NCBI GenBank assembly: GCA_016213945.1
Contig: JACQZF010000002.1
Span: 12,675-76,674 of the forward strand
DNA: 64,000 bases
Reading direction: 5' to 3'
Origin: Nitrospirota bacterium
Lineage (GTDB): Bacteria; Nitrospirota; Thermodesulfovibrionia; UBA6902
The first letter of the stretch is position 1; every line of letters starts with the position of its first letter. The translations under genes and the position numbers were made by a program. Shown in pieces: positions 21,233-22,459 of the stretch. Under the pieces are notes generated by a model that ran no database searches, was not told the origin of the DNA, and saw only the letters and a list, made by a program, of their open reading frames with translations.

Positions 21233-22459
21233 TTAATCATCATCATCATCTCTTTTGTTACGTTTTTTCTTTTTGGATCGCTTATCTTTCTTCTTCTTTT
21301 TCTGAAGCTTTTCCTTGAATGCACTACCTAATGACCCTTTATCTAAAGCCTTTAATAAATTTTCAAGGCTCTTTACTCCTTTTCCAAAACTTGCCAGAGC
21401 AAACTTACCCTCACCAATATTTTTTATCTGCTTTAAGTTCTTCAAATTCTTGTATGATCCCTTATCAAGCAATTTTAATGTTTTGTATCCAGAATTAATC
21501 CCAGAAATATATTTCCATGCTTTTGTATCAAAGGGGCCTTCGTCTTTAATTTGTTTCGATGTCACAGTTTTTTCAGTAAATAAATTCAATACCACAGCAG
21601 TTCCATGCTTCACAGTTTCATTAAACTCACTAACAGCAGACATTAAATTTGAAGCTGCATCCAATTTATGGCCAGTAACATATGAAACACTTGCCATTCC
21701 TGCATTGAAAAATATAGAGGAAAGTGATACTGCACTCGAAAGCGTTTCTTTCCAAAATCCTTTCCAACTAAGCCCATCAGGATCAATATAAGTTAAGGGA
21801 TTATTTTGAACGTAAGCATATCTATTTAAATCTTGTGGATTTTCGAAGTCAGGCTCGGCAACATCCGCCTGTGTGAAGTGTTTGAACATGGTACTGTTGT
21901 AACGGGCTTCAAAGTAGTAGAGGTCGGTCTTGTCTTTTTCTTTACCGGTGTAGGAATACTTCTCATTGCCGGTGCTTCCCTGCTTTACTTCGCCGAACGG
22001 CATGTAATCCGTCTTTGCAACCACTGTCCCTGCTGAATCAGTGACTGCATTTGTCCCGCCTAAGTGGTCGGCGTGATAGTAGTAGATATTCCCCGATGGG
22101 TCTTTCTTTGCAACCCTCTCGCCTTCGGCAAAGTAGTAACTCGAATTCCCTTCGTCAGTTCCGCCGATCTGCTTTTCAAAATGCTTGCCGATGTAGTAAG
22201 TCGTCACACCGTTTTCAATCTTCTTTATGCGCTGACCTGAATAATCATAGAAATATTCCGCAACCACCGCGCCGTTCTGGTCCCCCTGCCGCACCCTCAC
22301 TAATTGATTCGCATCATTGTATTCGTAATAATTCCCGTCGCCGGTGACGAGACTGCCGTTGGCGTCGTAGATGTTGATGATGTTTGTGTCAGGCGTATCG
22401 GCGTGGACAGAAGGCGCCATTATCAACACCAGAAGAAGTATGTAGAAAAAGCGTTTCAT
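21233..22459 (-). CDS. Small secreted RHS-repeat-associated core domain protein with uncharacterised Lys-rich C-terminal domain
   Basis: Signal peptide MKRFFYILLLVLIMAPSVHA, YD repeats, and the Rhs core (YYYHADHLGGTNAVTDSAGTVV ... PQDLNRYAYVQNNPLTYIDPDGL). After DPDGL comes ~190 aa of unrecognised sequence ending KKKKKDKRSKKKKRNKRDDDDD. Confidence 0.75.
   Translation of the reverse strand: MKRFFYILLLVLIMAPSVHADTPDTNIINIYDANGSLVTGDGNYYEYNDANQLVRVRQGDQNGAVVAEYFYDYSGQRIKKIENGVTTYYIGKHFEKQIGGTDEGNSSYYFAEGERVAKKDPSGNIYYYHADHLGGTNAVTDSAGTVVAKTDYMPFGEVKQGSTGNEKYSYTGKEKDKTDLYYFEARYNSTMFKHFTQADVAEPDFENPQDLNRYAYVQNNPLTYIDPDGLSWKGFWKETLSSAVSLSSIFFNAGMASVSYVTGHKLDAASNLMSAVSEFNETVKHGTAVVLNLFTEKTVTSKQIKDEGPFDTKAWKYISGINSGYKTLKLLDKGSYKNLKNLKQIKNIGEGKFALASFGKGVKSLENLLKALDKGSLGSAFKEKLQKKKKKDKRSKKKKRNKRDDDDD

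Follow-up and report, generated by a model that had tools for sequence, protein, structure and literature searches.

The window analyzed here is a 64,000-nucleotide stretch of a Nitrospirota bacterium genome (NCBI GenBank assembly GCA_016213945.1, contig JACQZF010000002.1, positions 12,675 to 76,674 of the forward strand). Our subject within it is a small Rhs protein of 408 amino acids (aa), encoded on the minus strand by the open reading frame (ORF) 21233..22459 (stop codon 21233-21235), together with the 2142-aa protein encoded directly downstream. An earlier note on this DNA had drawn attention to the C-terminal domain (CT) that follows the DPDGL motif of the small protein. Our data indicate that the reason for the small size of this protein was overlooked: it is one half of a split Rhs protein, and the 2142-aa neighbor is its partner.

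The small protein opens with a predicted Sec signal peptide at aa 1-20, in which a hydrophobic stretch with a mean Kyte-Doolittle (KD) hydropathy of 1.5-1.7 is followed by VHA at the putative cleavage site, and a comparable hydrophobic N-terminal stretch is present in 101 of 120 family members. Its Rhs-associated core was identified by TIGR03696, which covers aa 152-230 with a score of 63.8 bits (cutoff 32.5, E 1.6e-17), and is closed by DPDGL (aa 226-230, nucleotides 21770-21784); PF05593, PF03527, and PF25023 gave only sub-threshold matches to the protein in Pfam. We found that residues 21-230 align with the C-terminal shell and core of TccC3, YenC2, and teneurin. Foldseek with the AlphaFold model returned the shells of Rhs, toxin complex (Tc), and teneurin proteins at E ~1e-6, identifying this part as shell; in the AlphaFold model of the whole small protein (120 sequences) the YD part is confident, and the core and CT are not. 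Two aspartates stand out in the core. Among 120 relatives, D226 (the first residue of DPDGL) never varies and D199 is at least 90% conserved; both are invariant in a 25-sequence set, and they align opposite the DPDGL and SSDP stretches of TccC3, which we take to hold the catalytic aspartates of the Tc/Rhs autoprotease. At the sequence level, the small protein has an Rhs core (TIGR03696) that ends in DPxGL and contains both aspartates. It contributes only ~200 shell and core residues and is not a one-polypeptide shell with its cargo.

The large partner has the composition of a TcB-type protein, with SpvB (PF03534, E 2.4e-9) and PF12256 (E 3.6e-12) ahead of its RHS repeats. The repeats end at ~aa 1090 and are followed by immunoglobulin-like (Ig-like), TSP3, Big, LamG, and dockerin-like domains. 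No TIGR03696 (Rhs core) match was found in the large protein, nor did Pfam return an FG-GAP or propeller match in it. A ~330-aa FG-GAP propeller lies between SpvB and TcdB_midN in the orthologues from Geomonas (locus L001) and Geobacter (L004), and not in the protein of the window. A sequence search of the PDB with the large protein, made to fix the register of the repeats, was ambiguous because of the repeats themselves and was replaced by collinearity with single-chain relatives. The features of the locus are collected in Table 1.

Table 1. Features of the split Rhs locus, in the order of transcription of the module (positions in the window).
Feature	Position	Strand	Remarks
Fibre-like "tail collar" protein, secreted, first gene of the module	23243..24244	-	PF07484 Collar, NF053851
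hicB/hicA-like pair, insert, not part of the system	22654..23075	+	between collar-like and small genes
Predicted Sec signal peptide, small Rhs protein	22400..22459	-	aa 1-20, MKRFFYILLLVLIMAPSVHA, hydrophobic N-terminus
Last YD repeats of the shell and Rhs-associated core (plug, aspartyl autoprotease)	21770..22399	-	aa 21-230
Conserved CT part (predicted cargo)	21302..21769	-	aa 231-386, common to CT relatives
Polybasic-polyacidic tail KKKKKDKRSKKKKRNKRDDDDD	21236..21301	-	aa 387-408, read from sequence
Out-of-frame 5' end of the large gene, signal peptide	21085..21249	-	54-codon ORF; contains the 128-bp gap
Large partner, 2142 aa as called	14676..21104	-	SpvB, TcdB_midN, ~10 RHS repeats (Pfam, NCBIfam)

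The distribution of split and single-chain forms was analyzed in the 77 loci that a scan of 185,579 species genomes returned, by tblastn with the N-terminal part of the small protein, the CT, the N-terminal part of the large protein, and the large shell, and by tracing the ORFs. The split form was seen in every relative with at least 50% identity, a set drawn from Thermodesulfovibrionia, other Nitrospirota, Geobacter, Desulfonema, Smithellaceae, Desulfobulbaceae, Electronema, and a Woesearchaeota metagenome-assembled genome (MAG). Further loci in archaeal MAGs, at 41-46% identity, are also split. Relatives with at most 45% identity that contain SpvB and the shell are single ORFs of ~1,400-2,650 aa and are collinear with the large plus the small protein: the region of the large shell leads within ~40 residues into the region of small-protein aa ~30-230 and then into a CT. 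The single-chain junction has the form ..(K/R)PHAV..Y.YDANGNM.. and reads ...YTYPANGSARPHAVTATSDGKSYAYDNNGNM... in L063, with similar junctions in L052, L080, and L042. In the window, the large protein continues past the junction into an Ig-like domain, and the mature small protein begins DTPDTNIINIYDANGSLVTGDG. Because the single-chain relatives are collinear with large plus small, the small protein is the detached C-terminal end of the shell, plus plug, plus cargo, split off by gene fission just after the PHAVT motif. The AlphaFold and Foldseek results agree with a detached shell end for the YD part. Both forms were seen in archaea: Methanosarcina (L035, L039) has single-chain SpvB-Rhs proteins, extra small or orphan copies of core plus CT occur in L035, L039, and Methanolobus (L041), and L040 belongs with these Methanosarcina and Methanolobus loci.

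More than 500 proteins match the small Rhs protein at E <=1e-5. Among the best 120 of these, nearly all have lengths of 320-470 aa, with a few proteins of 235-607 aa, and the match ends at the DPxG motif, covering ~55% of the query; their first ~225 aa are ~55-86% identical to the window protein over the aligned part. Behind the motif the CTs are variable and fall into at least 33 clusters. We identified CHAP (10 proteins), peptidase M23 (4 proteins), and WHH/colicin-DNase nuclease (P0113) domains among them, many singletons, and a 60-member group joined by a lysine-rich linker (KKKKKAKLSKREKW...). The CTs have a median length of 189 aa and a median isoelectric point (pI) of 9.2, the pI is above 8.5 in 68% of CTs, and the GC content of the CT lies below that of the N-terminal part in nearly all loci. 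Because there are at least 33 CT clusters of varied type, with this median length and pI, we consider that the slot behaves as a polymorphic toxin slot. The claim of the earlier note that an uncharacterized domain sits in the variable slot after DPDGL is borne out by the polymorphic CTs among the relatives and by the lack of library matches described below. A CT start with KKKK was seen in 59 of 120 proteins, most with a conserved lysine-rich linker (KKKKKAKLSKREKWMIAHG.DPDKDK) right after the cleavage motif and unrelated sequence thereafter; this looks like a pre-toxin module that they share.

The CT of the window comprises 178 aa (nucleotides 21236-21769; 19.7 kDa, pI 9.9), somewhat shorter than the ~190 aa first estimated for this domain. 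The repeated units described earlier correspond to one LLDKGS (aa 330-335) and one ALDKGS (aa 371-376). The GC content drops from ~0.48 to ~0.32-0.34 over 21100-21800 and is 0.34 in the CT versus 0.47 in the N-terminal part of the small gene. We found no match for the CT at E <=1 in Pfam, NCBIfam, or PADLOC, and the best match among PDB sequences (E 1.2) was not significant. A phmmer search of 1.84 billion cluster representatives with the CT returned two proteins: P0001, a 385-aa Geomonas ferrireducens protein of the same layout whose CT is 38% identical, and P0002, a 63-aa fragment of the CT family. P0004, whose CT is 56% identical, was found with the whole protein as query, and a profile search added a fragment (P0122) and a distant copy (P0123) whose CT stands behind a different Rhs core (..NFDPTGL) and is homologous with an hhalign probability of 95.5%. 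The CT family thus totals three full-length members, two fragments, and one distant copy, and metagenome scans gave no further CT relatives. Word-index searches with the CT returned nothing or fragments and missed P0003, P0004, and P0001, so their negatives were not counted as evidence. Three proteins that had appeared to carry the same CT (P0083, P0104, P0119; 86-94% query coverage) had no real CT similarity by phmmer. Overall, these data indicate that the CT is a new and very rare cargo family.

Across the four sequences that span the CT, the residues A, G, S, N, K, N, T, K, N, Y, L, L, and K are invariant, and no D, E, H, or C is, in keeping with the earlier remark that the domain shows no recognizable catalytic motif. 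Conserved polar residues include S270, N280, K284, K316, and Y325. AlphaFold modeled the CT from these four sequences as all-helical, at low confidence (pLDDT 51), and a Foldseek search of the PDB with this model returned only generic helical bundles (best E 0.26) and no fold match. The maximum hydrophobic moment of the CT is 0.61, a value reached in 5 of 1000 shuffles, versus 0.44 in shuffled sequences, and a conserved helix at aa 241-262 is rich in G, A, and S and weakly hydrophobic (KD ~1.1). Because the CT is all-helical and basic and has no conserved catalytic-type residues, it is probably non-enzymatic, and because it is helical, basic, and amphipathic, membrane activity is possible. A different explanation would be an enzymatic toxin whose fold is too divergent to recognize and whose immunity protein is encoded elsewhere in the genome. 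Many CT families in a 2012 survey of polymorphic toxins had no recognized immunity partner (PMC3482391), conservation was judged on only four CT-spanning sequences, and the word-index searches were unreliable and missed known members, all of which would suit such an enzyme. We nonetheless regard it as very unlikely, given the missing invariant D, E, H, and C, the lack of any Pfam, NCBIfam, PADLOC, PDB-sequence, or fold match, and the lack of a conserved extra gene beyond the module in the window, L001, and L002.

That no immunity gene adjoins the small gene in the window, as the earlier note had observed, is correct: neither the window nor L001 has an ORF of at least 70 aa in the interval that separates the two genes. 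The same is true of about half of the split loci. In approximately 14 of 28, the open frame of the large gene either overlaps the stop of the small gene or is no more than 140 nt away from it, and no ORF of at least 70 aa intervenes. Recognized immunity genes do occur elsewhere in the clade, with SUKH after the WHH nuclease CT of L006 and ComJ between the small and large genes of L028, after a CT of unassigned type. No immunity gene follows the CHAP CT of L004, and no immunity-like neighbor was found at any of the four loci that carry the CT family of the window. Beyond the three-gene module, no extra gene is common to the window, L001, and L002. An antisense 158-aa ORF (21315..21791, plus strand) was considered as a hidden immunity gene and rejected, as it has no counterpart of at least 80 aa in L001 or of at least 45 aa in L002, and the ORF downstream of P0123 proved to be a fragment of a surface protein with a type IX secretion system (T9SS) sorting domain. 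Because ~14 of 28 split loci are alike in this respect, the CHAP locus included, the missing immunity gene is not unusual and appears to be a property of the clade for non-nuclease cargoes and not an oddity of this CT. For the same reason, the earlier argument that its absence marks a non-canonical effector is not supported.

The small and large genes belong to a conserved module. In each of the 28 split loci, the small gene has a large-gene homologue no more than a few kb downstream, and a ~300-aa secreted collar-like protein is encoded upstream of the small gene in L001, L004, L006, and L007. The order collar, small, large was found in the window, in these four loci, and in ~20 more from Nitrospirota and Desulfobacterota, with genes often overlapping or spaced by less than 140 nt. 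In L001 (Geomonas), which carries the CT family of the window, the large ORF overlaps the small gene; L004 (Geobacter AOG2, CHAP CT) has a 40-nt spacer between small and large genes and L007 (Nitrospirae, K-rich CT without an assigned type) one of 32 nt, and in L006 (Desulfonema limicola, WHH nuclease CT) the SUKH gene and a second small gene lie between them. The collar-like protein of the window matches PF07484 Collar (E 1.4e-4) and NF053851 Bdello_MAT_N (E 5e-7), both below cutoff; Bdello_MAT_N is the N-terminal domain of the mosaic adhesive trimer fibres of Bdellovibrio. A collar homologue is directly upstream in most bacterial split loci (L017 and L020-L022 are among the exceptions), and none was found in archaeal split loci or single-chain relatives. 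The archaeal MAG loci are L027, L030, L031, L033, and L038, and DPANN and Methanosarcinales MAGs have split small-then-large pairs without a collar gene.

This setting raises the question whether the CT is a toxin at all. It could instead be a structural filler, or a binding or anchoring domain in an adhesion or cell-cell contact system, such as a polycationic module with affinity for anionic surfaces, extracellular DNA, or polysaccharide. In favor of this reading, TSP3, Big, LamG, and dockerin-like domains make the large partner rich in adhesin parts, the module opens with a fibre-like adhesin, 68% of the family CTs have a pI >8.5, none of the four loci of the CT family has an immunity gene, and the CT sequences have no conserved catalytic-type residues. 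We consider this unlikely, since sister loci hold proven toxin types (CHAP, M23, and WHH nuclease with SUKH) in the same slot, the CT shows the low GC content and the cassette swapping that mark polymorphic toxin tips and recurs behind a different Rhs core in P0123, and retained autoprotease residues make sense only if the CT is released.

The 128 bp between the end of the small gene and the ATG at 21104 was reported correctly in the earlier note, and no immunity ORF lies there, although the gap is not an empty spacer: it holds the 5' end of the next gene. The 54-codon ORF that spans it encodes a signal peptide out of frame with the rest of the large protein. The window reads ...SLIHAESSP* and continues in another frame, and the closest orthologue, L008, reads ...SVAYAGSSPTDYVPHSYESPIFSG. 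A signal peptide starts all 11 orthologous large proteins examined (L001, L004, L007, L008, L010, L012, L014, L015, L016, L020, and L023). Because the orthologues, L008 closest among them, run the signal peptide in frame with the large protein, the window carries a frameshift right after SSP, at ~21084-21090, which is an inactivating lesion if real and otherwise an error of assembly. The signal-peptide ORF is opened by four ATGs that are contained, in the +1 frame, in the (GAT)5 codons of the DDDDD run. This overlap of poly-Asp codons and start codons suggests coupled translation, and it may offer a mundane origin for the poly-Asp run. On the minus strand, no terminator-like site was found to separate the two genes.

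The polybasic-polyacidic tail noted earlier is present in the sequence and is not a feature of the family. The KKKK...DDDDD tail occurs in the window sequence only and is absent from P0004, P0001, and P0123; a short basic stretch forms the end of P0004 and of P0001 but is lacking in P0123. The tail thus appears to be a lineage-specific extension. One could take the frameshift and the low-complexity tail together as errors or pseudogene features of a decaying or mis-assembled locus, in which case the tail would have no biology. At ~150 nt downstream of the tail, the signal-peptide ORF of the large gene is out of frame, no sequence outside this MAG has the tail, and the sole identical database protein presumably derives from the same MAG assembly and gives no independent confirmation. 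There is little probability in our view that decay or mis-assembly explains the locus. The CT is encoded in an unbroken frame and can be aligned over its length with P0004 to ...GSLGSA(F/V)KE(K/R), both sequences being basic thereafter, Lys-rich stretches such as the KKKK start (59 of 120 CTs) are common in the family, and the large ORF is otherwise open over 2142 codons.

Taken together, we think it fairly probable that an Rhs shell is built from two polypeptides and that the 408-aa protein is the subunit that supplies plug and cargo, with the CT as a non-enzymatic, released cargo. According to this model, an ancestral single chain (signal peptide, SpvB, TcdB_midN, RHS shell, core, CT) would have been split a few residues after PHAVT, so that the last ~200 shell and core residues and the CT came to form a separate upstream gene with its own signal peptide, and the remainder, the 2142-aa neighbor, would have retained SpvB and the shell and acquired adhesin-type domains at its C-terminus. 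Both proteins would be exported by the Sec pathway, the small subunit would complete and plug the shell in trans, and D199 and D226 would cut behind L230, the last residue of DPDGL. The basic ~20-kDa CT would remain encapsulated until delivery to a target selected by the fibre and adhesin domains, where it would act non-enzymatically, most likely by perturbing membranes. The producer would need no dedicated immunity gene if the cargo is encapsulated or inactive on the producer.

In size and pI the CT fits the rule for Tc cargoes, which are ~20 kDa or more, have a pI of 8 or more, and are unfolded (PMC6868009), as do the median length and pI of the family. The weakest step is the action of the CT: a role that is both non-enzymatic and membrane-perturbing is the one we favor, but taken alone it is a tentative proposal that is more likely wrong than right. 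Several points count against the model as a whole. Published Tc work advises against amphipathic cargo (PMC6868009). Assembly of the pair, cleavage, and toxicity of the CT are all predictions, the CT model has the low pLDDT given above with an empty fold search, and the analysis of conserved residues rests on four sequences only. Amphipathic helices are also normal in soluble helical proteins. No TcA-like translocator was found among the called neighbors of L001, L004, L006, and L007, the other ORFs of the window being unscreened. Furthermore, a real frameshift would place the two halves in different compartments, and the module could then be defunct in this host.

The closest known counterpart is the BC subcomplex of Tc toxins (TcB plus TcC; for example Photorhabdus TcdB2-TccC3 and Yersinia YenB-YenC2). 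There too the shell is built from two polypeptides, the partner contains SpvB and TcdB_midN, and the cargo subunit ends in an Rhs core with DPxGL and two catalytic aspartates, behind which comes a basic cargo of ~20 kDa that is variable and has no immunity gene. In contrast, the split in the window lies much nearer the C-terminus, leaving ~200 shell residues in the cargo subunit, where the YenC2 shell chain has 690 aa (PDB) and the shell part of TccC3 ~680 residues. The window module also differs in placing the cargo-subunit gene first, in the Sec signal peptides on both subunits, in a shell subunit with C-terminal adhesin domains and no FG-GAP propeller, which is the gate to TcA in Tc toxins, and in a fibre-like collar gene in place of a TcA-type gene among the called neighbors of the four loci (window ORFs unscreened). 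Single-chain SpvB-Rhs polymorphic toxins, catalogued by Zhang et al. 2012 (PMC3482391), share the signal peptide, SpvB, RHS repeats, core, and polymorphic CT and are homologous to the module directly and in collinear order; they occur in Methanosarcina, Nitrospirota, Elusimicrobia, Acidobacteriota, and others. They are single polypeptides of ~1,400-2,650 aa, whereas the window has ~200 shell and core residues and the CT in a separate upstream gene and a large gene that runs into adhesin domains where the core would be. A third comparison is with Rhs effectors of type VI secretion systems (T6SS) that have a pore-forming CT, such as Tse5 of Pseudomonas aeruginosa, in which an Rhs shell likewise encloses a small CT. 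The Tse5 CT is helical and membrane-depolarizing and would be a functional analogue of the action proposed for this CT; Tse5 is a single chain delivered by the T6SS and has a cognate immunity protein. Unlike it, the module in the window carries Sec signal peptides and lacks an immunity gene beside it, and its CT has no detectable sequence similarity to any PDB chain. No T6SS genes were found among the annotated ORFs of the window, most of which is unscreened.

By these comparisons, the module differs from known systems, as far as its sequence can be read, in split position, gene order, two signal peptides, an adhesin tail, a fibre gene, and the apparent absence of TcA. We found no description of a split Rhs or Rhs/tail-collar module in the literature searched, which is no proof that it is undescribed. 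Rhs and Tc shells are studied as protein-delivery capsules, and the known shells consist of one polypeptide or of a TcB/TcC pair made in the cytoplasm. If our model is true, a shell can be closed in trans after export by a ~200-residue plug that has its own export signal and comes with at least 33 cargo types, and this plug would be a much smaller module for loading foreign cargo. More speculatively, and with the odds in our view against it, the module could represent a new delivery system without T6SS or TcA, in which a Sec-exported shell assembles itself outside the cytoplasm from the shell-adhesin and plug-and-cargo subunits, is aimed by a phage-fibre-like trimer, and carries swappable cargoes, a new non-enzymatic, membrane-active family among them, with no need for immunity since the shell would shield the producer. 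The annotation of "orphan small Rhs" genes in anaerobe genomes should change, and the lack of an immunity gene beside an Rhs tip does not by itself argue against a toxin.

Several insertions and neighbors surround the module. The pair between the collar-like and small genes, which we presumptively name HicB/HicA from sequence recognition only, matched no NCBIfam family at E <=0.01. On either side of it lies one copy of an imperfect 20-nt direct repeat (22618-22637 and 23074-23093, 80% identical), and in L001 and L004 the collar-to-small spacing is 19-20 nt with no insert. Apparent toxin-antitoxin (TA) cassettes have also entered the module at two other loci: two PIN/AF2212 pairs lie in L007, and L002 has a Phd antitoxin next to a RelE/ParE-like ORF. 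Intergenic palindromes (GTCATTCCGGnnnGTCCGGAATGAC) resembling repetitive extragenic palindromic (REP) elements occur around the module at 22493-22509, 23090-23122, 24581-24606, and 25758-25790. Peptide motifs like ..PAKAGIQ.. and ..RGND.. at the N-termini of P0005, P0006, and P0019 resemble them, which suggests over-extended gene calls. A 174-aa ORF (22456-22980, minus strand) overlaps the start of the small gene by 4 nt, runs antisense through the hicB/hicA-like pair and a REP-like repeat, has no Pfam match, and is probably spurious. A second large TSP3-repeat protein (1192 aa; 42603-46181, minus strand) gave only weak MtsC/MtsD-like matches. Finally, the window contains two GspD-type secretins, one at 1313-3619 (minus strand) and one in the region 24671-31028 (plus strand), and a gspC-D-E(-F) operon of a type II secretion system (T2SS) starts ~430 bp from the collar-like gene; this adjacency was not seen in L001, L004, or L007 and may be coincidental.

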